Shown: positions 28,682 through 46,035, counted from the first letter of the stretch. The stretch: 64,000 nucleotides of DNA from an uncultured Pseudomonadales bacterium (GCA_964422035.1 CAYQZQ010000001.1:441013-505012); one strand, 5' to 3'. Notes: a model not told the origin generated them from the letters alone. Made by a program: numbers and translations.

Positions 28682-28693
28682 TATACTTGTCTT

Positions 28694-29697: not shown

Positions 29698-30178
29698 TAA
29701 GAAGATCTTTAAATTCTGATAAAACTTTTTTGGTGTTCCGCCATTGATTGGAGAAATTCAAGTATTGGGATAATTTTGCTTGAGGTACCCATTTTATCTT
29801 TTTTAGCTCTTCTTCTTGCAGGCTGAGATTATTTTTATCACCGGTAAACTTGACCAAGAATTGAGATTGAACTTGGCCGCGAAAGTATTTACCTTTTTGC
29901 TGGTATTTCTTTTCGATTACTTTTTGGGGCCAGTTGTATTGTTTTTTATATTTACTTTTTGTAAGAATTTTAAAAGAGTCGCTTCCCAACTCTTCTTTTA
30001 GTTCTCTTTTTAGGGCATCTTTGTCTGTTTCACCATCCTCTACTCCTCCACCGGGAAACTTCCAGTGATCTTTCGAGTAGCCGTTTTTTTGAACGAGGAG
30101 AAAGTTTTTTTGATCATCGAAGACAATACCTATTGTGCTTTGGCGAAAAGGGAGTTTGTCTAAATCAGGAATTGACAT
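29690..30178 (-). CDS. NUDIX hydrolase
   Basis: Nudix box GGGVEDGETDKDALKRELKEELG. Overlaps the downstream Nudix gene by 8 nt. Confidence 0.8.
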   Translation of the reverse strand: MSIPDLDKLPFRQSTIGIVFDDQKNFLLVQKNGYSKDHWKFPGGGVEDGETDKDALKRELKEELGSDSFKILTKSKYKKQYNWPQKVIEKKYQQKGKYFRGQVQSQFLVKFTGDKNNLSLQEEELKKIKWVPQAKLSQYLNFSNQWRNTKKVLSEFKDLLSG

Positions 30179-30206
30179 CAGTAGTATTTTATCAGTTTGA
30201 AACTGA

Positions 30207-31066: not shown

Positions 31067-31327
31067 TTATCCAACAAGATTTGATTTTTGAGGAGGAAGC
31101 ACAGAAGGATTATTGTTTTCTTCTTTGTCTTTTCTTTTTTGCTCAATTAGTTTTTCAAGTGTTTTTTGCTGTTGTTTTTGATATTCTTCTTTGTCTACTT
31201 CTTGGAAGTTTTCTTTACCAGCAATATCTTTGAATTGCTCTGGATTGTAGACAGGAATAACGACACCGTGAGAGTTTTTGAAGTAGGAAACTTTGAAGTG
31301 GTTTGGTTGCTCTTTTTTTAAGGTCAT
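31067..31327 (-). CDS. Hypothetical protein
   Basis: 86-aa charged ORF with a coupled stop/start to the upstream gene. Confidence 0.35.
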   Translation of the reverse strand: MTLKKEQPNHFKVSYFKNSHGVVIPVYNPEQFKDIAGKENFQEVDKEEYQKQQQKTLEKLIEQKRKDKEENNNPSVLPPQKSNLVG

Positions 31328-31645
31328 AAATTAAGGGCGGATGTGCATAATTTATTTGACAAGCACTTGATCATCACTCATTGCATACACTTTATACATG
31401 AACCGATAGATGGCAGTCAAGACAACTAGATTGCTTAGGAAAGCATTTCTTTTCTATCAATCTTCATCGAAGAAAATCTATTTTTGTTCGGTTTAAGTTG
31501 GTAAAAATCCATATCACCTGTTTTATTATTAGAATTAATCAAAACTACCTCTCTAAAAGGGAACTTATGATTATTTAACCAATCTACTACTTCTCTTAGT
31601 TGAATTTTTATAAAAGGCCTTGTTGCTGGTCATTTCTGGACGACG

Positions 31646-31690
31646 AGGTTAAGGTTCCAATGTTTTTGGGGAAATCAAGAGTTTTGTAGG
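31646..31690. repeat. Copy of the tRNA-Gln downstream flank (aggttaaggttccaatgtttttggggaaatcaagagttttgtagg)
   Basis: About 85% identical to 43907..43958, which lies immediately downstream of tRNA-Gln. Confidence 0.55.
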
Positions 31691-31700
31691 GTGTATGTTC

Positions 31701-31760
31701 TGGTTGAGCAGGCAGGTCTCGAACCTAATCGTTCCATAAAATGAGACAAATGGGACAGTA
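31701..31760 (-). repeat. tRNA 3'-half-like pseudo-fragment A (T-arm, acceptor 3' strand and CCA; no 5' half)
   Basis: Reverse complement reads ...GATTAGGTTCGAGACCTGCCTGCTCAACCA, i.e. a GGTTCGAGACC T-loop and a CTGCTCA-A-CCA 3' end. No complementary 5' acceptor strand is nearby. Confidence 0.5.
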
Positions 31761-31784
31761 TAAAAAAAGGGTAATCTGCATACT

Positions 31785-33683
31785 TTGTTTGGCTTTTTTG
31801 AAATTTGTTCTGTTGGAACTTTATTAACTCAATATATAAGCTATAATTCAACTAAGGAAATAACTATGGCGGAAAAGTCCCCTCCCCAATCATCACATGC
31901 GAAAGATATAGAGCACTTAGACAATCTCGTTCAAAGAGCCAGTACAAAAAAAGAGAATGAACCCAAACGCAAAAAGAGTGTTGTAGTTGTGGGTTCTACC
32001 TACTTTCCCAACTTTGGAGATAAAAATGAAAATATCCCTGACAATATAAGGGGCAATCTAGTATTAGAAAGTTTAAAGAAACTAAACAATGAAGGTATCG
32101 ACGTGTGTGTAGTCGATGGTAGTAGCTCCGAAGCTTTTGTGGAAAAAGTAAAAGAAATAAATCCAAAACGTTTTAGCGAAGGAGGTGTGAGTAGAGAACC
32201 TGCTGATATACATGATTTTATCAACACTCTAGAGGTTTCTGAAGAGGCAAGTAAAAAGGGGGAAGACATCCCTGGAATCATATGGTTTGTTGAACAACAG
32301 GAAGAGGGCTATAGCCAAGCAAGGGTTGAGGTAATAAAAAGCGTTACGGATGTTGTAACAGGCTCTGTAGATCACGAAGCCATTTTTCAAATGGAGTTAG
32401 AGAAAACTCCTTTGGTCGGCGAGATAGAAAAAACAATCAAACCGATTGTAGAGGGACGGGCAGATATAGTTATCCCAGATCGTGGCATAAGGGTTAAGGA
32501 TTTAGGAGATGATCGGGACGATTTCCGTAATTATCCAAGATTTCAAGCCGTTTCTGAGAGAAAAGCAAATCTCCTCATACACCAGATGCTTGTAGAAGCA
32601 GGACTAAGGGGGGCTGAAGACTCTGTGCTAGATCTATTCGGGGGGACTAGGGCAATCAAAGATAAGCCAGACCTTAGAAGATTATTTGGCGAAACCTTTA
32701 AAATACCAGAAGATAGTTCCTTTTGGGGAAAAATTAAACCAGAAGCTTATTCTAACGCCGTATACTTTCCTGTCTATATTGCTCTTGCACTGGGCCGAAA
32801 GGTAGATTCTGTACCAATTGATTTCTCCTATCCAAAGAGTCAAACAGCACTAGAGGCACAGGATGAAAGTTATAAAGAGAAAAGACAAGAGCAATTCAAT
32901 GATATCGTAGGAGGCTCAAAATTATTAATAGACTTCTTGGGTAAAAAATTGAAAAAAGTGAAACTCGCAGAAAAAGTTCTTGATACAAAAAGGGTCCTAA
33001 ATTATCTTAGAAAAAACTCTGTGATTGAACTTGAGGAATTGCAATGGGAAGAAAAAAACCAATTTAGTGAAGAATTACATTACGACAAAGCAGATTTACT
33101 TTCCATACTTGAAAAGATAGGGCAAGGCGAAAAGATTGTTGAGCAACTTGACGATGCACTTGCTTCCTATCTTTCTAATTTCGACGCTGGTCACTCTTTT
33201 TTGAATTGGGATGAGTTTAAACAAGTACGAAAAAGGATGAATCTTTTGAAAAAGGGAGTTAATCTCTTTGGAAAAGAAAAAGAGGCTGAAAAAATTTATG
33301 AAAAATATAGAGATCAAATACTCAACAATCTATATAATACAACGCTTATTTTTTATTTATTGAGAAACTCTGGTGCATCTAGAAATTTAGACATTGCCTC
33401 TTTCTTTGCTGAATTTGTCGAGGTTTCAAAAACGGACTACTCCATAGCGGTGCTTTTTGGCACTTCAGACGACGCAAAGCTAGACGAGCTAAATAGTTTG
33501 ACAAAAAAATTTAACTTAACTGCAGGGGAAAAAAGACAAATAATAGTAGGGCTATCAAGACAGGTAATAATAAAGAAGCCGGAAACAGATAAGAAAGAAC
33601 TTATTGATGATTTAGGAGAGATTTTTGAAATTCCTCCTGAGGAGTTATCAGTAATTAGTAAAAGAGTGTTAGAAATAAGCTAA
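31785..33683 (+). CDS. Large hypothetical protein (possible N-terminal GT-A-like nucleotide-sugar transferase fold; likely start at MAEKSPP, 31866)
   Basis: 632-aa ORF. VVVVGSTYFPNF...LESLKKLNNEGIDVCVVDGSSSE resembles the GT-A N-terminal pattern. The rest is unrecognised. Flanked by fragments A and B. Confidence 0.45.
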   Translation: MFGFFEICSVGTLLTQYISYNSTKEITMAEKSPPQSSHAKDIEHLDNLVQRASTKKENEPKRKKSVVVVGSTYFPNFGDKNENIPDNIRGNLVLESLKKLNNEGIDVCVVDGSSSEAFVEKVKEINPKRFSEGGVSREPADIHDFINTLEVSEEASKKGEDIPGIIWFVEQQEEGYSQARVEVIKSVTDVVTGSVDHEAIFQMELEKTPLVGEIEKTIKPIVEGRADIVIPDRGIRVKDLGDDRDDFRNYPRFQAVSERKANLLIHQMLVEAGLRGAEDSVLDLFGGTRAIKDKPDLRRLFGETFKIPEDSSFWGKIKPEAYSNAVYFPVYIALALGRKVDSVPIDFSYPKSQTALEAQDESYKEKRQEQFNDIVGGSKLLIDFLGKKLKKVKLAEKVLDTKRVLNYLRKNSVIELEELQWEEKNQFSEELHYDKADLLSILEKIGQGEKIVEQLDDALASYLSNFDAGHSFLNWDEFKQVRKRMNLLKKGVNLFGKEKEAEKIYEKYRDQILNNLYNTTLIFYLLRNSGASRNLDIASFFAEFVEVSKTDYSIAVLFGTSDDAKLDELNSLTKKFNLTAGEKRQIIVGLSRQVIIKKPETDKKELIDDLGEIFEIPPEELSVISKRVLEIS

Positions 33684-33686
33684 AAC

Positions 33687-33736
33687 GTCTGAGCAGGTAG
33701 GTCTCGAACCTACTAATCCCATAACTGGACAGTGTA
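33687..33736 (-). repeat. tRNA 3'-half-like pseudo-fragment B (direct repeat of fragment A)
   Basis: Reverse complement is ...GATTAGTAGGTTCGAGACCTACCTGCTCAGAC, with a perfect T-arm GTAGG-TTCGAGA-CCTAC. It shares gagcaggNaggtctcgaacct plus the aatc..ccataa..ggacagt tail with fragment A. Starts 4 nt after the stop of the 632-aa gene. Confidence 0.5.
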
Positions 33737-33881
33737 TTTGAAGTTTGAAATTTCAAACATAATGAGCTTATGAGCCTCAAGCCCAGGCTCTATAAATGTT
33801 GTAATAATAAATCAATTGTTCACCTTAGTAAATTTTGTATATGATTATTTTAATGGACAAAGAAAATAAATATTAACTTTT

Positions 33882-34439
33882 ATGGTTGATATTACACTTA
33901 TTACAAGAAACGCCAAAAAGGTGCAATCAGCACAAGTTGCCATGAGCAGTCATGGTATAAAAGTTTTGCAAGAGAAGCTTGATACTCCTGAAATTCAGGA
34001 CAAAAATATTGATAAAGTTGCAGAATTTTCGGCGAAATTTGCCGCCGATGAATTAGGAAAGGCAGTTATAAAAGTTGATGTCGGTTTTGAAATAGAAGCC
34101 CTGAGCGGCTTCCCAGGACCTTTCTCTAAATTTATCAATGAGTGGCTACCTCCTGAAAAAGTATTGAGGCTTCTTGAGGGTGAGGAAAACAGAAATGCAA
34201 AATTTATTGATGTTGTTGCATTTAGCGAACCAGGAAAAGACCCTGTAAGTTTTAGATCAGAGACAATCGGTAAAATCTCATATCAATCGTCAGGTAATAA
34301 TGGTTGGGGCATTGACAAAATATTTATCCCAAAAGGATACAAGTGCACACTGGCAAGCCTAGAAAACGATAAGCGGGTAAAAGTTTGGAATACTGATCAT
34401 TGGAAGAAGCTTGCCCATTTTATTAAAAAAGAGAGATAA
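33882..34439 (+). CDS. Ham1/ITPase-family non-canonical purine NTP pyrophosphatase
   Basis: ITLITRNAKKVQSAQ and DVGFEIEALSGFPGPFSKF match the RdgB/HAM1 motifs. Confidence 0.75.
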   Translation: MVDITLITRNAKKVQSAQVAMSSHGIKVLQEKLDTPEIQDKNIDKVAEFSAKFAADELGKAVIKVDVGFEIEALSGFPGPFSKFINEWLPPEKVLRLLEGEENRNAKFIDVVAFSEPGKDPVSFRSETIGKISYQSSGNNGWGIDKIFIPKGYKCTLASLENDKRVKVWNTDHWKKLAHFIKKER

Positions 34440-34626
34440 CATAGCAAGAATATATTTGGTGGCCTTTACTGGTTGCGAAGATGAGAGTCTGACTGAAGCC
34501 TTGGCGCCCAGGACATGGTCAATTTAACCAAATTAAACGAATTGATGTATAGAAGCGAATTTACAAAGATCTAAAGTTGTGACCAAAACAAGGTTAAATC
34601 AAGTGATGAGTGAAACCTGTGGAATA

Positions 34627-35763
34627 CTAGGAGGCTTCCCAAGTGGAGTTTTCTATCAAATCTAAAGTATTTTTTGCATTTTGTTTAGCTTTTTTAGCAC
34701 CAGTTTTTAATATACCCGATACATAGTCTGGATCTTGAGTGATTTTTTGGCGCTTTTCTTGAAATTCATGAAGGAAATTTTTAGTTATCTTGGTTAATAT
34801 TTGTTTAAAATCACCCATAACTTTCTCACCCGACATATGTTTCTGAACTATTTGATCTATCATGTTTTTATCTTCTTCTGTTCTGGCAAGCTCTTGAGCC
34901 AAGAGAATATGACTTTTAAGTGTTTCGTTCATCTTCCCAGCAAAAGCTGTCTGTGCGCGTTTAATCTTATCTGCTGCTTCTTCAGGACTATCGGTCAGGA
35001 ATATTGCCCCTTTCGGGTTGGTTTTGCTCATCTTACCGTCACCTCTCAGTGACTGTAGCCTTAACGGAGCCTCAACTTCTAAAACTTTAGGTGTGGGCAA
35101 AATTTCTCCATATTGATTGTTGAATCTTCTAATCAACTTCCTGGTTACTTCCATGTGAGCTAGTTGGTCTTCACCTACAGGCACCTTGTGAGCTCTTTGA
35201 AGAATAATGTCTGATGCCATCATTACAGGATAAAGTAAAAGTAGGGCATTTGCAGTTTCAGGTCTTGAGTTTTTTTTGAGCTTATCTTTTAAAGTCGGAA
35301 CTCTTAGTAATTCAGAGGCACTAATGTGCCTAGATAGCCACGTCATTAAGGTAGTAACTTCTGGAGTAATCTCAGATTGAACAAATATATCAGTCCTTTC
35401 GGGATCAAGCCCCAGGGCAAGATAATCCGCTACTACTTCATTTGTGAATTTGCGAGCCTGATGAGGCTCATGATCTGTTAAGGCGTGTAGGTCCGCAACA
35501 AAAACCATGATCTCTTTCTCCTCATCCTGGAGTTCTACTATGGGCTTTACCGCACCTAAATAATTAGCAACGGTTAAATCGCCCGTTGGGCGAATACCCG
35601 TGAATATATCAACCATATAATCTTTTCTTTCCTTTTTTTCAGGACTATTTAGCATATCTTGATTCTTTAGTGTTTCAGACTTGTTTATAGTATCTTTTTC
35701 AGATTCTCTCATAGTTTGAGTAATTAAATCAAATCTGAGTACAAATGTCAATTTAGATTTCAT
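34627..35763 (-). CDS. trpS: Tryptophanyl-tRNA synthetase (full-length, with a ~60-aa N-terminal extension)
   Basis: TGIRPTGDLTVANYLGA (HIGH region), VFVADLHALT, and the KMSKS-type motif GDGKMSKTNPKG. Followed by the anticodon-binding helical domain. Confidence 0.85.
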   Translation of the reverse strand: MKSKLTFVLRFDLITQTMRESEKDTINKSETLKNQDMLNSPEKKERKDYMVDIFTGIRPTGDLTVANYLGAVKPIVELQDEEKEIMVFVADLHALTDHEPHQARKFTNEVVADYLALGLDPERTDIFVQSEITPEVTTLMTWLSRHISASELLRVPTLKDKLKKNSRPETANALLLLYPVMMASDIILQRAHKVPVGEDQLAHMEVTRKLIRRFNNQYGEILPTPKVLEVEAPLRLQSLRGDGKMSKTNPKGAIFLTDSPEEAADKIKRAQTAFAGKMNETLKSHILLAQELARTEEDKNMIDQIVQKHMSGEKVMGDFKQILTKITKNFLHEFQEKRQKITQDPDYVSGILKTGAKKAKQNAKNTLDLIENSTWEAS

Positions 35764-35803
35764 TATTAGAGGATAATCTGCATCAATGATATAATTTAAA
35801 AAA

Positions 35804-36856
35804 ATGGATAGACAAAAACAAGAAAAGATATCATCTGCAATTAAGCAAGTAATCGCTGGGAAAGATTTGGATAAAAAGAATTTGAAGGAAGTTTTTAAGA
35901 TTATATTGGAGCATGGGCTAGGAGATGCAAACGATGTTTCTTTTGGGGCTTTATTTGCAGCCCTACAGACTAAAGGTCCGACAGATAATGAGTTACTTGG
36001 CTTAATTGAGATTGTATTGAATTATGACAGAGAAAAAATTCCATACTCAGGGAATTCAAGCAATCTTTGTGGGGTAGTAGGAAGTGGTAAGGATGATATA
36101 AAAACTTTCAACATCAGCACTTGTGCGGCTTTTGTGGCCTCAGCAGCTGGAGTAAAAATGGTCAAAAATGGATCTCGCAGTGAATCTAGTATCGCTGGAA
36201 CCACGGACGTGCTTGAAGAACTAGGAGTAAAAATAAATCTTGAACCGGAAGAAGTTATTGAGGCTTTAGAAAAATATGGTATTACTTTTTGTGATGCAGG
36301 ACCTTATTTTCCCAGGATGAGTAGAGAATACGTTGGAAAATTTCTGTTTCCTCATCCACTGAGTTACACCTTATCCATAGCAAGTGGTTTAAGTTTTGAG
36401 AGGGTATTGTTTGGTGTTTCCTTTCCCGAAACTGAAAGGGTTGCTCATATTTTAAGAGAGCTTGGGTATCATGATTTCATGGTAGTTTCGGGTGAAGATG
36501 AAAAAGGTAGACGCTTCGATGAAATTTCAAATATCGGACCAACAAAGATCAGTGAGTATAAAAAGAATAAATTAAAAACTTATACTGCCAGTCCAGAAGA
36601 TTTTGGCATTAAATCCTCTGAGCATAAATACATTAAGGAAGGGGAGTCCGTAAAAGAGAACGCTAAAAAAATGCTAGATATTCTTAAAAATCAGACTGTC
36701 GCTCCAACGAGAGATGTTGTCTTGATAAACGCAGGAGCCCTCATTTATATAGCTGATAAAGCAGAAAGTATAAGAGAGGGCGTAAAAATGGCAAAAGAGG
36801 CCATAGAAAGCGGTGGGGCATTTGAGAAGTTCAAAAACTTGAGAGACTACAAATGA
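35804..36856 (+). CDS. TrpD-like protein (anthranilate phosphoribosyltransferase / glycosyl transferase family 3)
   Basis: CGVVGSGKDDIKTFNISTCAAFVASAAGVKMVKNGSRSESSIAGTTDVLEELGVK aligns with TrpD ..GTGGDG.NT.NISTAAAFV.AA.G..V.KHGNRS.SS..GSAD.LEA.G. The PRPP loop is altered (GSGKD instead of GTGGD). Confidence 0.75.
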   Translation: MDRQKQEKISSAIKQVIAGKDLDKKNLKEVFKIILEHGLGDANDVSFGALFAALQTKGPTDNELLGLIEIVLNYDREKIPYSGNSSNLCGVVGSGKDDIKTFNISTCAAFVASAAGVKMVKNGSRSESSIAGTTDVLEELGVKINLEPEEVIEALEKYGITFCDAGPYFPRMSREYVGKFLFPHPLSYTLSIASGLSFERVLFGVSFPETERVAHILRELGYHDFMVVSGEDEKGRRFDEISNIGPTKISEYKKNKLKTYTASPEDFGIKSSEHKYIKEGESVKENAKKMLDILKNQTVAPTRDVVLINAGALIYIADKAESIREGVKMAKEAIESGGAFEKFKNLRDYK

Positions 36857-38169
36857 ATAAAACAGTGAATCAAGGCTCCAAGTATACCGATTCTAAAATT
36901 GATTATATGGAGAGGGGTGAGTTGGAAAAATTACAATTAAAAAGGATAAAAGAAACGCTAAGGTGGGCATCTGAAAATTCTAGATTTTATCGTGAGTTGT
37001 ATAAAGAAATTTCAATAAAGACAATAAATAGTTTCTCAGATTTTAGAAAGCTACCTTTTACAACCAAAAAAGACTTGGTGAATAACTATCCTTTCGGAAA
37101 TCTGTGTGTGCCTCAAAAAGAAGTGGTTGAAGTTCATTTTTCTTCAGGTACAACAAATAGACCAGTTCCCACTTACATGACTCAAGAGGATTTATTATTG
37201 AGTAATGAGGCATTAGCGAGAACTTGGTATATGCAGGGGGTATGTTCGAATACCGTTTTTGGTATGCTTGCTTCTTATGGTCTATTTTCAGCTGGATTGC
37301 TGAATCATTATGCCATACAAAAGTTAGGGGCGTTTGTAATTCCTATTAGCTCATCTTCTACCGATAAGACAATAGGTTTGCTAAAAGACTATAGCATTAA
37401 TGCCACAGCAGCTGTAACTAGTTATTACTTATACCTTGTTAATAGGATAAGAGAATTAGGTTACTCTAAGGACAATTTTAATTTAGAGATTGCAATAGCA
37501 GGCGGAGAACCTTTTACTGAAAATCAACGAGACTATATTGAAAAGAATTTGGGGACTGAGTTGCTTGATCAATATGGTATTTCTGAGATTAATACCGGGT
37601 TGGCGGGAGAGTGTAAGCTCAAAAATGGATTACATATTTTAGCAGATTATGCATATCCAGAGATTGTTGATACTGAAACTGGGGAAGTCTGCGAGGAGGG
37701 GAAGTCTGGAGAATTAGTATTGACGACTCTTGCTAAAAGAGCTTCACCTCTTATTCGCTATAAGACAGGTGATATGGCGAGCATTACTTACAAGAAGTGT
37801 GGATGTGGAAGAACCTTACCTCGTATCTCAAAAATCATGAGAAGAAAAGGTGGTACATTGTTTTATAAAGGTAGGAAAATAGAGCGAGAATTTGTAATTA
37901 GTTTTATGGAAGATCAAGATGATTATCTGGATCCATACATTTGGAAGCTAATTTTGTCTGGCAATATGGGTAATCAGAAAATGTTTTTTAGGGTTTTGGT
38001 AAAAGGAGATAATAACCAAAAGGATTGCCTGAGAAAGCTTGAGATGGAATTTAAAAAGAAGGCAGGGATAAATGTTAAAGCTAAATTATTTTCTGAATCT
38101 GAATTAAAAAGCTTGGAAGAAGATAAGTTAAAACATTTTGTTGACAGACGCAAGGAGGTTGGTAAATAA
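36853..38169 (+). CDS. Adenylate-forming ligase of the PaaK / F390-synthetase / CapK family
   Basis: HFSSGTTNRPVPTYMTQEDL (the AMP-binding SSGTTG.P motif in PaaK-like spacing). 438 aa with the ANL two-domain layout. Confidence 0.75.
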   Translation: MNKTVNQGSKYTDSKIDYMERGELEKLQLKRIKETLRWASENSRFYRELYKEISIKTINSFSDFRKLPFTTKKDLVNNYPFGNLCVPQKEVVEVHFSSGTTNRPVPTYMTQEDLLLSNEALARTWYMQGVCSNTVFGMLASYGLFSAGLLNHYAIQKLGAFVIPISSSSTDKTIGLLKDYSINATAAVTSYYLYLVNRIRELGYSKDNFNLEIAIAGGEPFTENQRDYIEKNLGTELLDQYGISEINTGLAGECKLKNGLHILADYAYPEIVDTETGEVCEEGKSGELVLTTLAKRASPLIRYKTGDMASITYKKCGCGRTLPRISKIMRRKGGTLFYKGRKIEREFVISFMEDQDDYLDPYIWKLILSGNMGNQKMFFRVLVKGDNNQKDCLRKLEMEFKKKAGINVKAKLFSESELKSLEEDKLKHFVDRRKEVGK

Positions 38170-38170
38170 A

Positions 38171-39511
38171 ATGAGAAAGATATACACAATATTAGACGGA
38201 GAGAAATTGGCCGGGGATAGAGAGAAAGCAGTGATAAGCCCTTACTCTCTTAATCAGGTGGCCAATATTAATTATGCAAAATTAGAGAAAATTGAAAGAA
38301 AAAGAGCAAAAAAACATGATATGGCTTATCTGCGAAGAATACTACAAGATTTTGCAGATTATCTATCATCAGAATCCATTAAGTTAGCCAGAGTTGCCGC
38401 AGAAGAAACAGGGAGTCCAATAAAATATCACAAAAAAGACATTGAAGCTGTAATTGAATATATTGAGCATTTATGTGATGGTTTTGTATTTCAAGAAAGC
38501 CCATATGTTCATGAGTCTAAGGGAAAAGTCTTAATTCTGTTGTCGGCTAACGAGCCAGTTGTTTTAGGCACTATTCCATTATTAACGGCATTGATGACTG
38601 GGAACACTGTTTATCTTAAGCCATCTTCAAGGTCTCCATCTTATGCTTATTTAATCGTCAATAAGTTGCATAAATTAGGACTAGAAAGTGATCTTCTGCA
38701 TTTATTGCTTCCAGAAAAACAGGATATAGAGACCATCATTCAGAGACAAACTGTTGATTGTGTATTATCTTTTGGACATCACAAAACAAATAGAATATTA
38801 GGAGCTATTGCAGCTAAAGCAGGGGTCGAATTTATTCCAGAAAATGACGGAAACTGTTGGGCTTATGTTGATGAAGATTTTCCTTTTTGTAATAAGAAAT
38901 TGATATCAACAATAAAAAGGTCCGTGGTTAAGCACAATGGCCAGATGTGTGATTCATTACGCGGTTTATTAATTCACAATGAAGTTTTCGATGATATTTC
39001 CAAGGGAATAATAGAAAATATCAAAGATGTTAATATGGGTAATCCGTTAGATGTTTCGAGTGATGTAGGAGCTTTGCTAGTTGGTACAGCATCTAAGATC
39101 CCTGATCTTATAGAAGAAAGTAGTGGAAAGACCTATAAATACCATGTGGAAAACAATGTGGTGTCTCCTACTGTTGTTTTAGGTCCTCGTGCTGAATCGA
39201 CGTTAGTTGAAGATAGTGTTTTTGCGCCCGTTTTATGGATAAAGTCTGTTTCTGGACCACAAGAGGTAATTGAGTTATATAAGAGACATAATCACCATGG
39301 GTTATGCTTTTCAATATTCTCTAATGATGAATCCAGCATAGAGAAGTTAAGTAGAAACATCTCTGTGGGAAGGATAAATGTGAATTGCTCCCCGGTAGAA
39401 ATAGATGTTATGAGTCCGTGGGGAGGACTTAAAACGAGTGGTTATGGTGGGCCTACAAGTTGGTTTGACAGATTTACCAATAGAAAGGTAATAAACCATG
39501 GACAATTTTGA
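38171..39511 (+). CDS. Aldehyde dehydrogenase-superfamily protein (ProA / acylating ALDH-like); the ORF track gives 38138
   Basis: SFGHHKTNRILGAIAAKAGVEFIPENDGNCWAYVDED aligns with the ALDH FTGS..VG..I..AA...LELGGK motif. NGQMCDSLRGLLIH matches the catalytic-Cys region (compare ProA CNA.E.LLVH). An AAGGAGG SD precedes the ATG at 38171. Confidence 0.6.
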   Translation: MRKIYTILDGEKLAGDREKAVISPYSLNQVANINYAKLEKIERKRAKKHDMAYLRRILQDFADYLSSESIKLARVAAEETGSPIKYHKKDIEAVIEYIEHLCDGFVFQESPYVHESKGKVLILLSANEPVVLGTIPLLTALMTGNTVYLKPSSRSPSYAYLIVNKLHKLGLESDLLHLLLPEKQDIETIIQRQTVDCVLSFGHHKTNRILGAIAAKAGVEFIPENDGNCWAYVDEDFPFCNKKLISTIKRSVVKHNGQMCDSLRGLLIHNEVFDDISKGIIENIKDVNMGNPLDVSSDVGALLVGTASKIPDLIEESSGKTYKYHVENNVVSPTVVLGPRAESTLVEDSVFAPVLWIKSVSGPQEVIELYKRHNHHGLCFSIFSNDESSIEKLSRNISVGRINVNCSPVEIDVMSPWGGLKTSGYGGPTSWFDRFTNRKVINHGQF

Positions 39512-40154
39512 AATCGTAATAATAACTGGAGTTTCGGCAGATGGTAAGGTTACTCTTGGAGAAGGAGTAAGTAGCAAGAAGTTTGCGGCTTTGTTGTCTC
39601 CTGAGATGTCAGAACCGCTTCTAGAATTGAGACGGTGGGCGGATGTAATTTTAGTTGGGAGAAAAACAGTGAAGATAGACAACCCCTCTTTAAAATCCAA
39701 TGAAAATTCAGGACTAATTAGGGCAGTTATAGATAGAGAGATGCGCTTATCTTTAGACAAGAATATATTTGATGGGTCTGCGAGGACTCTAATTATTACA
39801 ACAAGCACAAACAAAGAGAAGGAGAGGCAGCTTAGACAAAAAGGTGTAGAAATTATAAGGATTTCACAAGAAGATTTTTTACCAGAATTAAAAAATGAGT
39901 TTGAGGAGCGTGGACTTTACAAGATAATGGTTGAAGGTGGAGGTAATTTGAATTATTTTATGTTAAAAAATCATTTTGTTGATAAAATCATCATCGCAAC
40001 TTTTCCTTTTATTGTAGGAGGAAAAGATACCCCAACTATAGTAGACGGAGAAAGCATAGCAACTATGAAAGAGGCAATAAAATTGAAATTAATTAGATCG
40101 TACTTGGTTGATAAAAATATGGTAGTAAATGAATTTGGGGTAGAAAATGACTAA
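39498..40154 (+). CDS. RibD C-terminal-type (dihydrofolate-reductase-like) reductase domain protein
   Basis: IVIITGVSADGKVTL...ADVILVGRKTV...KIMVEGGGNL matches the RibD_C / ArfC-like reductase layout. Confidence 0.65.
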   Translation: MDNFEIVIITGVSADGKVTLGEGVSSKKFAALLSPEMSEPLLELRRWADVILVGRKTVKIDNPSLKSNENSGLIRAVIDREMRLSLDKNIFDGSARTLIITTSTNKEKERQLRQKGVEIIRISQEDFLPELKNEFEERGLYKIMVEGGGNLNYFMLKNHFVDKIIIATFPFIVGGKDTPTIVDGESIATMKEAIKLKLIRSYLVDKNMVVNEFGVEND

Positions 40155-41040
40155 ACTTAAGAAAATTAAGCTGAAAAAATATTCTTCTTTAGATGATAAA
40201 TATTTTGCAAAAAGGCAATTATTATCAAAATCCTTAAATTTATCAAAAAAAGAACTTGGAGAGGTTTTTTCTGGTAAGGAAAAATACAAAATTGTTACAG
40301 GTTTTGGTCTAACAGGTTATTTTCATCTAGGAAGTAAATTGCTTCTAAACGAGGTAAAATTTTTTGCTGATCTTGGATTAGAAGCACAAATATTGTTGAG
40401 TGGATATGATACTAGAGTAAGAGGAACCACTAATTCCAAAAGCCCAGTACATATACAAAAAAGTATGTTGCAAATTATAGACAAACTAGACAAAAATGAA
40501 AAGATTAAAGTAGAGGAAAGATCCCCTGGAGTAGATTCCGAGATTTTCCAATCGATTAATGATTTAGTGAACAAAGATGATTTTGTTGAGTTTTATGGAC
40601 AAGAAATGGGTAAGAGTGGTAGAGATGCTTTGGTAGATATGGCAGCATCAATTATTGAAATTGATAATCAAAAGAAGATAGTTATATTGCTAGGGGTTGA
40701 TGAACTGGGTGAAGCTCTTTTCATCAGTCATGTTTATAAAAAGCTTGAGATGTCACCACCAGGTTTTTTATTCAATCATGTTGTACTCGGATATGACTCC
40801 AACAAAATGGGCAAGTCGCGTCCGGAATTTAGTTTAGTTATTTCATCGTCTGCAGAGGAAGAGATTAAGAAGGTTGAAAAATATCTTCGAAAAGATGGAG
40901 ATCACCGGAAATGTCCTTGTTATTATATAAATTTGTTCTCAAAGTATGGAGATCCCGAAATATCTACATGTAAGCGCGTGCATAAAAAATTACCTACGAT
41001 TATTAAAAAAGAATGTAAGGAGTTCGTGTCAAGCGACTAA
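40147..41040 (+). CDS. Truncated class-I aminoacyl-tRNA-synthetase-like paralog (TrpRS/TyrRS catalytic domain only, with a Cys-rich C-terminal tail)
   Basis: HIGH-like VTGFGLTGYFHLGS, KMSKS-like NKMGKSRPEF. No anticodon-binding domain. C-terminus HRKCPCYY..STCKRVH. 297 aa. Confidence 0.6.
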   Translation: MTKLKKIKLKKYSSLDDKYFAKRQLLSKSLNLSKKELGEVFSGKEKYKIVTGFGLTGYFHLGSKLLLNEVKFFADLGLEAQILLSGYDTRVRGTTNSKSPVHIQKSMLQIIDKLDKNEKIKVEERSPGVDSEIFQSINDLVNKDDFVEFYGQEMGKSGRDALVDMAASIIEIDNQKKIVILLGVDELGEALFISHVYKKLEMSPPGFLFNHVVLGYDSNKMGKSRPEFSLVISSSAEEEIKKVEKYLRKDGDHRKCPCYYINLFSKYGDPEISTCKRVHKKLPTIIKKECKEFVSSD

Positions 41041-41043
41041 AAT

Positions 41044-41748
41044 ATGAAGACATTAAAGCAAGCCTATAACGATTTTTTTGATCAGAAGTTTAACGTAGAT
41101 GTGGAGCCAGTTTATGACAATAAGGTTCAAAGTATATTAAAGTATGTTGATCATAATAAGCAGGTGCTAGACGTAGGGTGTTTGACAGGTTACTTGGGGT
41201 ATTTTTGTTTAAAAAAGAAAAACAGTACTAAGGTGGTGGGAATTGATTTTGTCGAAAACGCTTTAAAGCATGCTCGTAAGCTAGGTATTGATGCACGCTA
41301 TGGTAACGTCGAAAATGGCAGTTTGCCAATTCAGGATTCTGAGCGCTTTGACGTAATAATAGTTTCTGAGATAATTGAGCATTTGGTTGATCCTCTTGTT
41401 GTGTTGGAAAAACTCAAAAAGGTGCTCAAGAAAAACGGAAAGATAATAATTTCTACACCAAATATGGCTTATTTTCAATATAGATTTGAACTGCTAATGG
41501 GAAAGTTGCCAGATTTTTGTGAGTTTCGTGGTAAATATCCAGAAAGACCCTACAATTTTCAACACAAAACTTTATTTACTAAAAAAGTACTGGTCGAGAC
41601 ATTGGAAATGGCAGAATTAAAGCTTAAGAAACTTGATAGTCATAGCACATATAAGAGTAAGTTGGAGAAGTTTTTTGATCCTTTTGAAAAACTATTTCCA
41701 GGTGTGTTTGTTAAGAATATGATTGCAGTTGTTACTAAAAAGGATTAA
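41044..41748 (+). CDS. Class I SAM-dependent methyltransferase
   Basis: Motif I VLDVGCLTGYLG, motif post-I VGIDF, and DVIIVSEIIEHL. Confidence 0.8.
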   Translation: MKTLKQAYNDFFDQKFNVDVEPVYDNKVQSILKYVDHNKQVLDVGCLTGYLGYFCLKKKNSTKVVGIDFVENALKHARKLGIDARYGNVENGSLPIQDSERFDVIIVSEIIEHLVDPLVVLEKLKKVLKKNGKIIISTPNMAYFQYRFELLMGKLPDFCEFRGKYPERPYNFQHKTLFTKKVLVETLEMAELKLKKLDSHSTYKSKLEKFFDPFEKLFPGVFVKNMIAVVTKKD

Positions 41749-41754
41749 TGTTCA

Positions 41755-42633
41755 ATGAAGGCAGATAACAAGAAAATTCGAGAGTATGTACACAGAATAA
41801 AAGGTGATAAATCGAAGGTAAAAAGACTTCCAACAGAAAGAGAAAGTTATGTTTACTCGATTGAAGATCGTTTGATCTATAAAATTATGCCTGAGTCTCT
41901 TAACAGAAGTACTTATCAGGAGATTAACAGACTGCTTGAAGACAGCGGGGTGCCTTTTCCTAATTTAATTGATGAATGGAAAGAGGGAGGATTTCATCAC
42001 TTAATCCAGGAGAAGAAGTCTGGGAAAAAGTTGTCGGCAATGAATAACAAAGAAAAGGTAAAATATTATCCCGAAGTCGCAAGCATATTATATAAAATAC
42101 ATATGATTAAAATTAATTCAGTAGGGCCTATTGAAGAAGCTGGTGGTAAATTTTCAAATTGGGCAAGTTATATACGAAATTTTAAAAAATTTTCAGAGAA
42201 CCATGGGGATGTGGTTCCAGAATATGTTACAAAAGATGATTACGAAATAATATTAAGGGCTGTAGAAGATTTGGCACGGAGAAAAAATAATCCATGTTTG
42301 GTTCACGGTGATTTTATGGAAAAAAATATTTTAGTCGAGGGAGGGAAAGTAACTGCCATACTGGATTGGGATGTTGCAATAGCTGGTGATCGGATCATGG
42401 ATTTTGCTACTTTTCGTCTTTGGGATGGAATATTTATTAACAACTCACTAATTGAAGAATATTACCCTGAGAAAAAACTATTTGAACAAGACAAATTTGA
42501 GTTCTATTGTAATCGTTATCAGCTGTATTCAGGATTTATTACACTTGACTTTTTAATTAGTAACGAAGAGCAAGACTTGTTTAATTTACCAGAAAAAATT
42601 AACAGAATCTGCTCTAAAATACAAAAAAGGTGA
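41755..42633 (+). CDS. Aminoglycoside-phosphotransferase (APH)-family small-molecule kinase
   Basis: Catalytic loop LVHGDFMEKNILV and the ILDWDVAIAGDRIMDFA motif. Confidence 0.7.
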   Translation: MKADNKKIREYVHRIKGDKSKVKRLPTERESYVYSIEDRLIYKIMPESLNRSTYQEINRLLEDSGVPFPNLIDEWKEGGFHHLIQEKKSGKKLSAMNNKEKVKYYPEVASILYKIHMIKINSVGPIEEAGGKFSNWASYIRNFKKFSENHGDVVPEYVTKDDYEIILRAVEDLARRKNNPCLVHGDFMEKNILVEGGKVTAILDWDVAIAGDRIMDFATFRLWDGIFINNSLIEEYYPEKKLFEQDKFEFYCNRYQLYSGFITLDFLISNEEQDLFNLPEKINRICSKIQKR

Positions 42634-43871
42634 AGATACTATTCGTTCCTTTAAGCGAAACAGCGCTTGCTCATATTGTCAGGTGCTTAGTCATTGCGCT
42701 CGAAGCTAAAAAAGAGGGCCATGAGGTGCTTTTTACAAGCATAAGGGGGAGAACTGACTTGATTGATGGATTTGATATTCCTGTGTATAAAAATGGGATT
42801 AAACTTCTAAAAAATACAGAGGGTGAGATCGACAAAATATCACAAATCAGGAGATACGAGATTGAAGCAGCTAGATATTTTCATCCGGATGTGATTATAA
42901 ATGATCCAGTAATAGCCGGTTCATTTGCTGCAAGAAAGTTAAACTTACCATTGGTCTTAGTAACAAACTCGACACTTTTGCCGAATTATTCTGGATATTA
43001 TGGATATTCCAAGGTAGGAAAGGATTTGACTAGTAATTTCGGATACTTTGGTAATTATTACCCACGCAAGGTTATGTTTCCAAAAATTTTGAAAGTTTTT
43101 GACAGGCTTGATATCAAAAATATACCAAGACATTATAATAAATTATTTGATAGAAATTTAAAGATAATACCAAGCATCCCCCTACTTGATCCTCTAGATA
43201 ATCCAGACAGCCTAACACATTATGTAGGGCCCCTTTTGCTTGAAAACCACTGGAAACCTGATAGTGAGTTGGTTAATTTTGTAAATAAGGTAAGGGGTCC
43301 TCTGGTTGCAGTAAATTTTGGAGGGTCAGTATTTTTAGAAAATACTTATCATAGAACAATTGAAGTATTACTTTCTTGTGGCTATAAAATTGTAGTCGGA
43401 ATTGGCCCGAATTTTGATATTGAAAAATTCCAGAATAAATATGGAAAGGATAATAATTTGCTTATTAGACAATATACCCCAAATGAATATTTGGCAGAAA
43501 GAGCAAAATTTTTCATAATTTCCGGTGGACACGGAACACTAACTCAGACTTTATTGAATGGTTGTCCTGTTTTATGCATACCTCATAACGTGGACCAGAG
43601 CACATTTGCTCAGAGGGTTGAAGAATTAGGTTGTGGAATTAATGTGATGAGGATTGATAAACCGATGAAGGATCTTGATTATTGGAGGAAAAAAGCGAGC
43701 AATCTATCTAAAAATAAGTTATTCGATGCGATTAAGAAACTAGAGGTAAACGTTGAGAATTTTAGAACTAATTGTCGTCAAGTCGGTGATCAACTGTCTA
43801 AACATTCGAATCCTGCGAAAAAAATTTTGGATCTCACCGAAGAGTTTGTCGACCAAAAGCAACGCTTGTAA
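42630..43871 (+). CDS. GT1-family UDP-glycosyltransferase (MGT / UGT-like)
   Basis: C-terminal donor-binding signature FIISGGHGTLTQTLLNGCPVLCIPHNVDQSTFAQRVEELGCGI. Confidence 0.75.
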   Translation: MKILFVPLSETALAHIVRCLVIALEAKKEGHEVLFTSIRGRTDLIDGFDIPVYKNGIKLLKNTEGEIDKISQIRRYEIEAARYFHPDVIINDPVIAGSFAARKLNLPLVLVTNSTLLPNYSGYYGYSKVGKDLTSNFGYFGNYYPRKVMFPKILKVFDRLDIKNIPRHYNKLFDRNLKIIPSIPLLDPLDNPDSLTHYVGPLLLENHWKPDSELVNFVNKVRGPLVAVNFGGSVFLENTYHRTIEVLLSCGYKIVVGIGPNFDIEKFQNKYGKDNNLLIRQYTPNEYLAERAKFFIISGGHGTLTQTLLNGCPVLCIPHNVDQSTFAQRVEELGCGINVMRIDKPMKDLDYWRKKASNLSKNKLFDAIKKLEVNVENFRTNCRQVGDQLSKHSNPAKKILDLTEEFVDQKQRL

Positions 43872-43906
43872 TTATTGGAAGTGATAAATTTTTTAAGTGT
43901 TTTTTT

Positions 43907-43958
43907 AAGGTTAAAATCTCGTTCCAATGTTTTGAAGGAAAATCAAAGGTTTTGCAGG
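43907..43958. repeat. tRNA-Gln downstream flank (homolog of 31646..31690)
   Basis: aaggttaaaatctcgttccaatgttttgaaggaaaatcaaaggttttgcagg. Confidence 0.55.
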
Positions 43959-44005
43959 ATATAAAGGCATAAAACAGGTAGTAAGGTCGGAGGGGGTGCC
44001 CGTAC

Positions 44006-44079
44006 TGGTTGCCAGGCTAGGATTCGAACCTAGATTGACGGTGTCAGAGACCGCAGTCCTACCATTAGACGACCTGGCA
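44006..44079 (-). tRNA. tRNA-Gln (anticodon CTG)
   Basis: Reverse complement is TGCCAGGTCGTCTAATGGTAGGACTGCGGTCTCTGACACCGTCAATCTAGGTTCGAATCCTAGCCTGGCAACCA. Acceptor TGCCAGG/CCTGGCA. Anticodon stem GCGGT/ACCGT with loop CTCTGAC. T-arm CTAGG-TTCGAAT-CCTAG. CCA is encoded. Confidence 0.85.
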
Positions 44080-44121
44080 AAGTTTGTTTTAACCTATCTA
44101 ACCGTCTTATATTTTACCAAA

Positions 44122-46035
44122 TTAACCTGCTCCACCGCCACCTCCACCACCCCCTCCTCCGCCTCCGCCGGAGACAGATCCCGAGGATCCCGCGCCTGAG
44201 GCGCCATAAGAACTGGAAACTGCAGTAGATAGAGAAGAGACAGCGCTGTTGACTGAAGAGATTGATGAAGCTATGGAAGCAGAGGCTGCAGAAGGTGAGG
44301 CGGCCCAGGTGTTAGCCATGACTTTTTGATCTGAGCCAGAGAATCTAACAGGTAGTTGGGAAAGGGTCTTGCTGGAGACTCCCAGAACTGTACCGTAGAC
44401 TAAGTATTTTTCCCAGATGATGACAGAGTCGATAGGATCGTCTTTGGTGCGACGATATTCTTGAATATGGTTTTTGAAAGCCTGCCAGGAAGCAGCTTCT
44501 TTGGCTCCTTTTTTGGTGCGCTTTAGGCCTAAGTATTTGAAGATAAACAGAGTGATTAAAAACAGCAGAGGAAGGACCCAGCCAGCTGTGGCAATAAGAG
44601 CAGGGGTTATATTTTCAGTGTCAAAAAGAGGGGTGAGTTGAATAAAGATGAAAAAGTTGACAGCGATGATAAGCAGGAAGGGTACAATTTCTTTGTATTC
44701 CTTTGAGTACTTAAGAGAGTCTTTATCAAAAAAACCTTGCTTGACGTTTTGAGACAGGGCTTTGTCTTTTAGACTGTCGAAGAATTTTTTGGAGCTGGTT
44801 TTGTGGCGCTTGGTGTAGGAAATTAAGTCATCAAACCAAAGCTGATCTTTATTGGGGGCTGCGGTCTTAAAAAGAAAGTCGTAAACCGCTTTTTGTAATG
44901 AACTGAGATTGTCAATATTGTCCAAGTTATCTTTTTTTAAGGCATACTTGTAATCTCGACTGAAGACTCCATGCTTTTTATCTGAGCGGGTGATTTTTAA
45001 AACTTTATGTTGAACCAGAGATAGGACAGTGGCAGTAAAAGACTTGGGAGATAGATTTTTATTACCTGACACAAGCTGCTCGACCTGGGCTGGATCGATG
45101 TCAGATGGGGGTTCCCAAAGAGAATCGGCTAGATTAATCTGAGGTAGAGGTTCGTCTTTGCCTAGTTTTTGGAATCTCTTGTAGGCTCTGATGAAAAACC
45201 CTAAAGATACTAAAGCCATTAAAACAGAAAGGAAAGATTTGCCCCAGGTTATCAATGACTTTCTTCTGGTTTGGGCAATAAACTTTTGTTCTTGTTGGCG
45301 AATCTGATCTTTTGTTAGATCGCCAGTGGCACCTTGATCAATTGTTAATTTGGGAAAGATTATTCTGGCTTCAAAAAAAGTATTTGGCGACACTTTAGGG
45401 GATGAGAGAACAACGGTGTTTGAGTTGGGAATAGAGACTGTACCATTTAAGGGGCCGTGGGCCCAGGCTTGGATCTGGTCGTCTGGAATGCCCTCTGGTA
45501 AATGAATGGTGATGTTAACATTTTGATGAGCGATGTCCCAGTCACTACCTAAAAACTGCCAGTATAGCTCGGCTGTATCCTGCTGGAGAGTGACGGCGTT
45601 GGGGACGGTATAGGAGATGATAAAAGTTTTCTGAGTATCATTAGCTGAGTAGAACCACTTTAAGAAGAGTTTGTTTTTTTGCTCAACTGTATAGAAAGAG
45701 CCGGATTCAAGTGGTTCAGATGAGGTGTTGAAACTTTTTCTAGGAGGAGAGACTTTTTGATAGCAAGCCTGTTTATCACAGACTTTAAAGTCAGTTAGTT
45801 GATAGTTTTGCTCTCTACCGGAGTTTTGTCCAGGAGTTTTGTCATAGTAGATATAAGCATAAGAAAAAGAGCCCTCAAAGTCATAGTGGTGCTGACTTTC
45901 AACCTCCATGGAGCCGTCTTTTTTAATGGTAGCTTTAGTTGACAAACTATCTATGGAGTATTCCTTGGCATGGACAGGGGCAGCAAGGAAAAGAAAGGTA
46001 AAGATAGATATCAAAAAGATTATTTTTTTATTCAC
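44122..46035 (-). CDS. DUF2207-like membrane protein with a poly-Gly/Ser C-terminal tail
   Basis: Signal peptide, large extracytoplasmic domain, central TM helices, and a C-terminus ...SGSVSGGGGGGGGGGGGGAG. Confidence 0.55.
   Translation of the reverse strand: MNKKIIFLISIFTFLFLAAPVHAKEYSIDSLSTKATIKKDGSMEVESQHHYDFEGSFSYAYIYYDKTPGQNSGREQNYQLTDFKVCDKQACYQKVSPPRKSFNTSSEPLESGSFYTVEQKNKLFLKWFYSANDTQKTFIISYTVPNAVTLQQDTAELYWQFLGSDWDIAHQNVNITIHLPEGIPDDQIQAWAHGPLNGTVSIPNSNTVVLSSPKVSPNTFFEARIIFPKLTIDQGATGDLTKDQIRQQEQKFIAQTRRKSLITWGKSFLSVLMALVSLGFFIRAYKRFQKLGKDEPLPQINLADSLWEPPSDIDPAQVEQLVSGNKNLSPKSFTATVLSLVQHKVLKITRSDKKHGVFSRDYKYALKKDNLDNIDNLSSLQKAVYDFLFKTAAPNKDQLWFDDLISYTKRHKTSSKKFFDSLKDKALSQNVKQGFFDKDSLKYSKEYKEIVPFLLIIAVNFFIFIQLTPLFDTENITPALIATAGWVLPLLFLITLFIFKYLGLKRTKKGAKEAASWQAFKNHIQEYRRTKDDPIDSVIIWEKYLVYGTVLGVSSKTLSQLPVRFSGSDQKVMANTWAASPSAASASIASSISSVNSAVSSLSTAVSSSYGASGAGSSGSVSGGGGGGGGGGGGGAG

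Follow-up and report, generated by a model that had tools for sequence, protein, structure and literature searches.

A tRNA-Gln-adjacent genomic island, probably of Patescibacteria origin, with tRNA-3'-half-like intergenic repeats and a rare TrpRS-linked gene cluster

Genes and features of the locus

The window analysed here is a stretch of 64,000 nucleotides from an uncultured Pseudomonadales bacterium (GCA_964422035.1 CAYQZQ010000001.1:441013-505012). Between about 31.7 and 44.0 kb it holds a block of genes that lies directly at the 3' end of an intact tRNA-Gln(CTG) gene and includes two short fragments resembling the 3' half of a tRNA (Table 1). An earlier note made from the sequence alone, referred to below as the sequence-only reading, had taken this segment for a genomic island acquired by integration at the tRNA. 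ARAGORN calls two tRNAs in the window, tRNA-Glu at 18635-18710(-) and tRNA-Gln(CTG) at 44006-44079(-), both confirmed by Rfam, the latter exactly where that reading had placed it. The tRNA-Gln(CTG) gene encodes its CCA end, and its 3' end points toward lower coordinates, facing the island, of which it forms the right boundary. The flanks encode housekeeping proteins, namely HisRS, Lon, MgsA, GluRS, an AspRS-type synthetase, RelA/SpoT, RecJ, the CCA-adding enzyme and SecD. The block is foreign in composition, and it resembles a lower-GC Patescibacteria genome, here called L089, in codon usage, in core genes (TrpRS and five others) and in the two short fragments. L089 is the locus of the second-best TrpRS match (68%) and lies on a 390-kb JGI contig.

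Table 1. Features of the island and its two junctions (positions in the window; aa, amino acids; ORF, open reading frame; HMM, hidden Markov model; GC3, G+C content at third codon positions; skew3, third-position GC skew).
Feature	Position	Strand	Basis and remarks
Flank repeat F, left copy	31647..31690		Host side; 10 nt separate it from the CCA end of fragment 1
CTGGTTG 7-mer	31700..31706		Common with 44005-44011; read directly from the sequence
Fragment 1	31701..31760 (core 31701-31740)	-	T-arm, acceptor strand CTGCTCA, A-CCA; nhmmer with the family HMM, E = 7e-9
ORF of 605 aa (632 aa from an upstream TTG)	31866..33683 (ATG at 31866)	+	Bracketed by fragments 1 and 2
Fragment 2	33687..33736 (core 33687-33726)	-	Second copy of the fragment 1 repeat, without CCA; nhmmer E = 4e-10
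Ham1/ITPase-family NTP pyrophosphatase	33882..34439	+	PF01725, E = 4.6e-29; GC3 0.306, skew3 +0.05, island-like
Tryptophanyl-tRNA synthetase (TrpRS)	34627..35763	-	TIGR00233, 257.5 bits (cut-off 176.75); sole minus-strand gene of the island
Five-gene block	35804..41040	+	Pfam, NCBIfam: TrpD-type phosphoribosyltransferase, PaaK-like adenylating enzyme, aldehyde dehydrogenase, RibD_C-type reductase, aminoacyl-tRNA synthetase-like protein
S-adenosylmethionine (SAM) methyltransferase, APH-family kinase, MGT/EryCIII-like glycosyltransferase	41044..43871	+	No homologue detected in the L089 locus
Flank repeat F, right copy	43909..43958		Local alignment; starts 47 nt downstream of the tRNA-Gln 3' end, island side
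tRNA-Gln(CTG)	44006..44079	-	ARAGORN; Rfam RF00005, 61.8 bits (gathering score 29)

The TrpRS of the island is 57-68% identical to many Patescibacteria TrpRS, and with its score above the TIGR00233 cut-off it is not divergent in sequence. Nor does it form a divergent pair with Ham1; the two genes, on the minus and plus strands, are convergent, and the divergent pair is that of TrpRS and the TrpD-like gene. In the five-gene block, the TrpD-type phosphoribosyltransferase passes TIGR01245 and the RibD_C reductase is of the archaeal type, while the fifth gene encodes a truncated class-I (TrpRS/TyrRS-like) synthetase paralogue of 297 aa, which keeps a HIGH-like GYFHLGS and a KMSKS-like KMGKS motif and is without the anticodon-binding domain. 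Of 5.8 billion proteins searched, the only homologue of this paralogue beyond the source genome is that of L089. TrpRS and the five-gene set may belong to a Trp-related small-molecule pathway. The 605-aa ORF matches nothing in Pfam, PHROG or NCBIfam; it has 263 homologues, and several relatives of ~300 aa match PF00535 (glycosyltransferase family 2) weakly. Its N-terminal domain is predicted to be a remote GT2/GT-A-like glycosyltransferase and not a recombinase. PDB sequence searches with this ORF and with the synthetase paralogue gave nothing beyond weak TyrRS/TrpRS matches, and a single-sequence AlphaFold model of the paralogue was unusable (pLDDT 36). A promoter and terminator scan of the island yielded counts equal to the shuffle expectation.

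Composition and boundaries

From ~30.3 to ~43.9 kb the GC content is ~0.35, down from ~0.42-0.45, and at the tRNA it rises abruptly. GC3 is 0.298 +/- 0.019 in the 13 genes at 30.5-43.9 kb against 0.427 +/- 0.040 in 26 core genes, without overlap (Mann-Whitney p = 5e-7). L089 shows the composition of the island, with a GC content of 0.35, a GC3 of 0.29 and no strand asymmetry.

The strand asymmetry of the host core (18700-30200 and 44100-64000) is extreme, third-position G and C frequencies (G3 and C3) being 0.273 and 0.154 in plus-strand genes and 0.120 and 0.304 in minus-strand genes, and codon usage of the two strands correlates with r = 0.09 only. Asymmetry of this size can mislead codon-usage tests that ignore strand. 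A first codon test (island versus core, r 0.43, and a per-gene likelihood ratio) was confounded in this manner and is not relied on, because the island is mostly on the plus strand and the core mostly on the minus strand; in that unmatched comparison plus-strand core genes also looked donor-like. The comparison was therefore redone with matching by strand, together with a strand-aware third-position skew. In strand-matched relative synonymous codon usage (RSCU), the plus-strand island genes correlate with the plus-strand core genes at r = 0.68 and with L089 genes at r = 0.87-0.94, a range that also covers L089 genes outside the shared cluster.

Whichever strand they lie on, host core genes show a strong plus-strand G excess at third positions, with a skew3 of about +0.2 to +0.55 in all except two (+0.11 and +0.02). 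Left of the flank repeat the values are host-like (NUDIX +0.32, a 197-aa gene +0.21, an 86-aa gene +0.50), inside the island they are -0.01 for the 605-aa ORF, +0.05 for Ham1 and -0.16 for TrpRS, and right of tRNA-Gln the DUF2207 gene returns to +0.49. TrpRS lacks the C3 excess of host minus-strand genes (G3 0.182 and C3 0.132, against 0.120 and 0.304 in the core). The third-position skew turns from host-like to non-host-like at the left copy of the flank repeat, and on the right both GC3 and skew3 change between 43871 and 44122, so that the island abuts the 3' end of the intact tRNA-Gln directly. The foreign block therefore extends from ~31.7 to 44.0 kb and switches at the repeat-marked junctions. 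The boundaries of the sequence-only reading were thus essentially right, and the deviation from the flanks that it had expected in GC content and codon usage is found in GC3, skew3 and strand-matched RSCU.

The two junctions

The sequence downstream of tRNA-Gln does recur at the distal end of the block, as had been noticed, as a repeat of ~45 nt. Positions 31654-31690 and 43921-43958 share 33 of 37 aligned bases with 3 gap positions (about 85% identity), and the Smith-Waterman score is 40, far above that of shuffled sequences (19.8 +/- 2.3, maximum 29). Just upstream of both copies, beyond an 8-nt indel, stands GGTTAA (31647-31652 and 43909-43914). The motif has no third occurrence in the 64-kb window and is unique to the two junctions. 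A direct repeat of tRNA-Gln's own 3' segment, as an attachment (att) site would leave, was not found at the distal end; the repeat there is the flank beyond the tRNA. What the tRNA itself contributes is the CTGGTTG at 44005-44011, which corresponds to the CCA, the discriminator and the last two acceptor bases of tRNA-Gln. On the left it opens fragment 1, whose plus-strand start, 10 nt from the left flank copy, reads CTGGTTG-AGCAGG-CAGG-TCTCGAA-CCTAA. This 7-mer is a possible crossover micro-homology. The 47 nt that separate tRNA-Gln from the right flank repeat (43959-44005) include an unusually GC-rich run, GGTCGGAGGGGGTGCCCG, to which nothing corresponds at the left junction.

In the two nearest GTDB relatives, tRNA-Gln(CTG) likewise lies ~3-6 kb from GluRS, in inverted orientation. 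For this reason the gene is probably native here and was resident at this locus. The tRNA-Gln(CTG) gene of one relative, at locus L007 (8430-8545; JAHITH010000007.1), holds in its T-loop an insertion of ~38 nt with two GC-rich hairpins and is not called by ARAGORN, while the otherwise near-identical gene of locus L006 (14124-14195) is intact; the insertion could be an intervening sequence or the mark of a disrupted gene.

The tRNA-3'-half-like fragments

The two fragments at 31701-31760 and 33687-33736, described as tRNA-3'-half-like in the sequence-only reading, are real and homologous to each other: over 35 nt, 31705-31739 agrees with 33690-33724 at 86% identity, and the alignment scores 45 where shuffled sequences reach 20.2 +/- 2.5. 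On the minus strand, fragment 2 reads as a perfectly paired 5-bp T-stem (GTAGG/CCTAC) with a TTCGAGA loop and an acceptor strand of 7 nt; fragment 1 shows the same arrangement and continues with A-CCA. Compared with 31 real tRNA 3' tails, they are on average identical at 12.7-13.2 of 35 positions, where real tails share 13.7 +/- 4.7 of 35 among themselves and random 35-mers of the window 8.4 +/- 1.2. ARAGORN makes no tRNA call at either fragment, Rfam gives no match at E <= 10 in 31300-34700, a 5'-truncated tRNA model reaches only 10.3 bits (E = 7) on fragment 2 with no match on fragment 1, and both fold no better than shuffled sequence. The fragments are thus tRNA-like, yet not tRNA genes. 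A functional split, permuted or intron-containing tRNA is rejected as well, in view of the lack of a complete cloverleaf (ARAGORN and Rfam negative), the shuffle-like folds and the absence of covariation across 9 copies of the repeat described below.

The fragments had also been read as duplicated 3' ends of tRNA-Gln, and this does not hold. Their 35-nt tails match the tail of tRNA-Gln at 18 of 35 positions, which is the background between unrelated tRNAs, and they are closer to tRNA-Met or tRNA-Gln(ttg) of unrelated bacteria (21/35). The acceptor strand CTGCTCA is unable to pair with the 5' strand UGCCAGG of tRNA-Gln, fragment 1 has only the terminal CTGGTTG in common with the tRNA-Gln 3' end, and both fragments belong to a repeat family abundant in L089. 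A parent tRNA was sought with the exact 21-mer of the fragments' 3' end, which has no match in IMG/VR and three in JGI metagenome contigs, all by chance and inside high-GC coding sequence; the 18-mer of the L089 type has in IMG/VR only chance matches to one phage gene family.

A one-directional intergenic repeat family

The first sign of the family was a short BLAST of the fragment region against L089, which gave two 16-nt matches in spacers. Repeat finding and nhmmer then revealed 13 distinct copies (11 strong and 2 weak) in 31 kb of L089 and a further locus, L090, about one per 2.4 kb, within the tracts L089 1-21068 (JGI Ga0366827_1000001) and L090 14000-20891 (Ga0366824_1000260). All 13 lie on the same strand regardless of the direction of neighbouring genes, and the two copies of the window also share one orientation. 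The L089/L090 copies are all intergenic, occupying 11 of 12 spacers longer than about 140 nt, and their neighbours in L089 are ordinary genes, e.g., HflX, RtcB, UPF0182 and Fur. At three loci the copies form tandem pairs with a period of 57-58 nt and a conserved 20-nt linker, ATTCGCTGGGAATAGTACCGTAAG.

The consensus of the family is TATGGGAT..(A/T)GG...YAGACC..CCTGCTCA(R). The unit is ~40 nt long, with a constant 35 nt from TATGG to the discriminator position, and homology stops sharply on both sides. Its core corresponds exactly in geometry to tRNA positions 39-73. CCA follows in two copies, fragment 1 and that at L089 20390. T-stem pairing and the TTC of the T-loop are lost in most L089 copies. 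RNAalifold on 9 copies gives a consensus fold of -0.5 kcal/mol with 6 pairs, without conserved structure or compensatory change, and the L089/L090 spacers have no match in Rfam; on these two results a functional RNA was rejected. A refined HMM finds only fragments 1 and 2 in the 64-kb window, both inside the island, and no copy in seven other Patescibacteria loci. The L089 population is represented by three assemblies, which agree at 99.97% identity without indels, so that no mobility is visible, and no transposase was seen in the gene lists of the 31 kb of L089/L090 or in the window, nor is a conserved target motif evident. To judge from sequence homology, the fragments are members of a one-directional intergenic repeat family abundant in the L089 genome and not leftovers of tRNA-Gln.

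Recombinases

Every ORF of 80 aa or more between 28 and 48 kb was compared with Pfam, and selected ones with NCBIfam and PHROGs, and no recombinase was found. Neither an integrase nor an integrase fragment is present in the 64-kb window or in the 31 kb of L089/L090, and the intergenic gaps of the island measure at most 538 nt. The sequence-only reading was correct in that no integrase or recombinase remains, and the search for an integrase pseudogene that it proposed is included in this result. On another contig, L001 (ENA ERZ761600 NODE_27), which carries a 40%-identical homologue of the DUF2207 neighbour, a 571-aa large serine recombinase with Resolvase and Recombinase domains (1069-3227) adjoins a tRNA-Gly/tRNA-Leu/tRNA-Pro cluster and overlaps the tRNA-Pro call. 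It is possible that this locus is an intact tRNA-associated integrative element in a relative.

The L089 locus and the host neighbourhood

L089 4663-11068 corresponds to window 34627-41040, with the same TrpRS divergent from the TrpD-PaaK-aldehyde dehydrogenase-RibD_C-synthetase-like order. The five-gene block is 54-67% identical in amino acids between the two, and the flanks of the two loci differ. The content of the island is not one arbitrary cargo, in that a core of TrpRS and five genes is syntenic in L089. Because protein identity is only 54-68%, L089 is a compositional and genetic proxy of the donor and not the donor itself.

The host is taken to be itself a member of the Patescibacteria with a tiny genome. 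Its nearest GTDB genomes are two 'Patescibacteria group bacterium' metagenome-assembled genomes with a GluRS 59% identical to that of the window. Synteny of the right flank with L006 covers SecD, SecF, the CCA enzyme, RelA/SpoT, a carboxypeptidase, a 354-aa gene, GluRS, and 295-aa and 121-aa genes, and it stops at 46.0 kb. No island genes lie near GluRS or tRNA-Gln in the two nearest relatives; an empty site cannot be shown in this way, because the left-flank genes are also absent from this neighbourhood of the relatives. The DUF2207 neighbour was tried as a synteny anchor and rejected: its homologues are 36-46% identical, including a Candidatus Woesebacteria record, and lie in unrelated contexts without tRNA-Gln.

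A second low-GC block in the window

The window contains a second low-GC3 block at 1-17300, on the 3' side of tRNA-Glu, with a GC3 of 0.335 +/- 0.032 and without the host strand skew (skew3 mostly -0.08 to +0.24). It encodes two lipoate-protein ligase paralogues, DUF169, an ABC transporter, a radical-SAM protein, a sulphur-transport protein, a two-component system and an ArsP-type permease. Neither partial tRNA-Glu copies nor an integrase were found in 1-18 kb. This block is probably another acquired region. A 291-nt direct repeat in it (5529-5819 and 12392-12682, 77% identical), lying in a 495-aa ORF without family match and in a 191-aa thioredoxin-like ORF, suggests a paralogous domain.

Origin of the block

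These observations are best accommodated, and with fair probability, by a horizontally acquired block of ~12.3 kb at 31.7-44.0 kb, which came from an L089-like lower-GC Patescibacteria donor lineage and was inserted immediately 3' of the resident tRNA-Gln(CTG). Recombination at the 3' end of tRNA-Gln, or slightly past it, would have inserted the block and left at both junctions an imperfect direct repeat that consists of the 37-45-nt flank motif and CTGGTTG, one copy presumably derived from the host and the other from the incoming DNA. Fragments 1 and 2 would be dispersed intergenic repeats of the donor lineage that arrived as passengers, and the ...TCAACCA end of fragment 1 may have provided micro-homology with the ...GCAACCA end of tRNA-Gln. 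Because no recombinase is left, the block is now fixed in place. The island acquired at a tRNA site of the sequence-only reading is retained in so far as it concerns the foreign composition, the end at the tRNA-Gln 3' end, the distal flank repeat and the missing recombinase, and it fails with respect to the fragments as tRNA duplicates.

Several points weigh against this account. The nearest genomes found are too distant to provide an empty site (GluRS 59%, DUF2207 <=46%), so that insertion at this exact site is deduced rather than seen, and a crossover at CTGGTTG depends on one 7-mer. The identity of 54-68% to L089 was measured on island-type proteins, and L089 stands as a proxy and not as the donor. 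On the left, the drop in GC3 precedes the flank repeat by two genes (0.32 and 0.28), so that this boundary is sharp in skew and not in GC. The skew3 of the five cluster genes has moved toward that of the host (+0.28 against -0.02 in the L089 orthologues, p = 2e-6) and that of TrpRS has not, which leaves a non-uniform picture of amelioration. An essential-looking TrpRS within an island is also unusual.

The main rival, a strong form of the sequence-only reading, takes the same features as the trace of successive integrase-driven integrations into a tRNA gene, each displacing the older 3' segment to give an alternation of tRNA, cargo, scar, cargo and scar, as in tycheposons. Both fragments lie 3' of tRNA-Gln and on its strand, all 13 L089/L090 copies point the same way, and family homology sets in sharply at the equivalent of tRNA nucleotide 39 and extends to the discriminator, over an unvarying 35 nt, the segment that a crossover in the anticodon loop would duplicate; partial tRNAs are also scattered in tycheposon islands (bioRxiv 10.1101/2020.12.28.424599). 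This reading is nevertheless doubtful, since the fragments resemble tRNA-Gln at the background level of 18/35 with an incompatible acceptor strand, the exact 21-mer revealed no tRNA with this 3' end in JGI metagenome contigs or IMG/VR, and no integrase or fragment of one accompanies the 13 copies of L089/L090 or the window. The L089 copies, moreover, sit between ordinary genes in almost every long spacer, their T-stem pairing and T-loop consensus are mostly gone, and the three tandem pairs with a conserved linker look like a copied unit rather than independent integrations. If the repeats are instead taken as recombination sites, comparable to integron attC or pdif, by which genes and small operons are shuffled among Patescibacteria and modules were docked at tRNA-Gln through the resemblance of the repeat to a tRNA 3' end, the one-directional orientation whatever the gene direction (13/13 in L089/L090, 2/2 in the window) would be expected, as would copies on either side of one gene, as seen for the 605-aa ORF here and for HflX and a 173-aa gene in L089. 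In both genomes the TrpRS block is delimited by a repeat copy on one side and by another boundary element on the other, and two copies have the tRNA-like end ACCA. No recombinase is seen, however, nor a conserved attC-type hairpin or covariation; the three L089 population assemblies show no indels, and the module content differs, the gene from TrpRS to the repeat being Ham1 here and a methyltransferase in L089, with the other end of the block different too. We therefore regard such shuffling as quite improbable. The broader and most novel proposal, that the ~40-nt repeat mimicking tRNA positions 39-73, sometimes with CCA, is the recombination site of a modular system not described before, by which Patescibacteria exchange genes and which can dock at the 3' ends of real tRNAs, has a low probability; if true, such a system would keep one orientation and bracket genes and operons including a tRNA synthetase, and would explain the arrival of the block at tRNA-Gln.

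Two further explanations are both very unlikely. The TrpRS block might go back to a common ancestor and have been passed on vertically, without transfer, in both lineages, with an odd composition due to local factors such as expression level or amino-acid content, in agreement with a six-gene core syntenic in the sole other genome that has it and with a TrpRS of the normal Patescibacteria type. This is hard to reconcile with synonymous third positions that do not overlap those of the core, with a minus-strand TrpRS that is without the replication-strand signature of every other minus-strand core gene, and with a second low-GC3, low-skew block (1-17 kb) that likewise abuts a tRNA. The window might otherwise be an assembly or binning chimera, in which DNA of a co-occurring L089-like population was joined at a conserved sequence such as a tRNA. 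The source is a metagenome-type contig of 725,544 bp, and a composition switch at a tRNA gene is a classic mis-join point, but two mis-joins back to one host contig would be required, a long exact repeat is missing at the left junction (the two flank copies agree at about 85% identity only), and the shift of the five cluster genes toward the host plus-strand G excess suggests residence here. Acquisition from an L089-like lineage next to tRNA-Gln is thus the reading that we favour.

Patescibacteria (the Candidate Phyla Radiation) have tiny genomes with few recognisable mobile elements, and the route of gene exchange among them is unclear. The window offers a clear example of a 12-kb block imported recently, with a nameable donor proxy, the L089 lineage, in which an aminoacyl-tRNA synthetase is joined to a very rare metabolic cluster and the donor's intergenic repeats serve as a fingerprint. 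For annotation, the case is a warning that a tRNA-like fragment beside a tRNA gene need not be an att duplication. The repeat family itself, one-directional, with tRNA-3'-half geometry and present in nearly every long L089 spacer, could point to a mobility mechanism in the phylum.

Comparison with known systems

Integrons consist of gene cassettes with attC sites, the integrase IntI, an attI site and the promoter Pc. The repeats described here are similar in being one-directional sites repeated between genes or small gene groups, and they differ in lacking IntI, attI and Pc as well as the extended imperfect palindrome of attC; the genes between them run both ways and include multi-gene operons. 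Short intergenic repeats of the REP/BIME and MITE/PATE types are tied to IS200/IS605 or RAYT transposases. They share with the present family the strictly intergenic units of 40-60 nt, the many copies per genome (in L089/L090), the tandem pairs, a small central hairpin and a strong orientation bias, as expected for single-strand transposition. In contrast to them, the family has a weak palindrome (4-5 bp) and the geometry of tRNA positions 39-73, with two copies ending in ACCA, and no transposase is seen in the window or in 31 kb of L089/L090.

In tycheposons and related islands of Prochlorococcus, the scattered partial tRNAs are copied from the tRNA of the island, and integrases, whole or as remnants, have been found (bioRxiv 10.1101/2020.12.28.424599). 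The likeness to the present locus lies in a streamlined host, a tRNA-seeded island, partial tRNAs in the orientation of the tRNA and a metabolic cluster as cargo (bioRxiv 10.1101/2020.12.28.424599). Unlike those partial tRNAs, the fragments here match no identified tRNA, and an integrase is missing. No tycheposon-type tyrosine recombinase with a replication or packaging module was found in the window or in the L089/L090 gene lists.

In tRNA-adjacent islands and integrative elements, recombination by the integrase takes place in the 3' portion of a tRNA gene, and the tRNA sublocations used have been classified by integrase subfamily. The locus agrees with these in having a block 3' of a tRNA, with atypical composition and codon usage, a cargo of accessory metabolism and an imperfect distal direct repeat. 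It departs from them in that the block is without a tyrosine or serine recombinase, in that the repeat is mostly flank with 7 nt of tRNA rather than 20-50 nt of tRNA, and in that the block carries an aminoacyl-tRNA synthetase. Collectively, the feature is a tRNA-adjacent immobilised genomic island of a known kind, few of which have been dissected in Patescibacteria, and its more unusual parts are the one-directional family of tRNA-3'-half-like repeats and the TrpRS-linked cluster, which is very rare.

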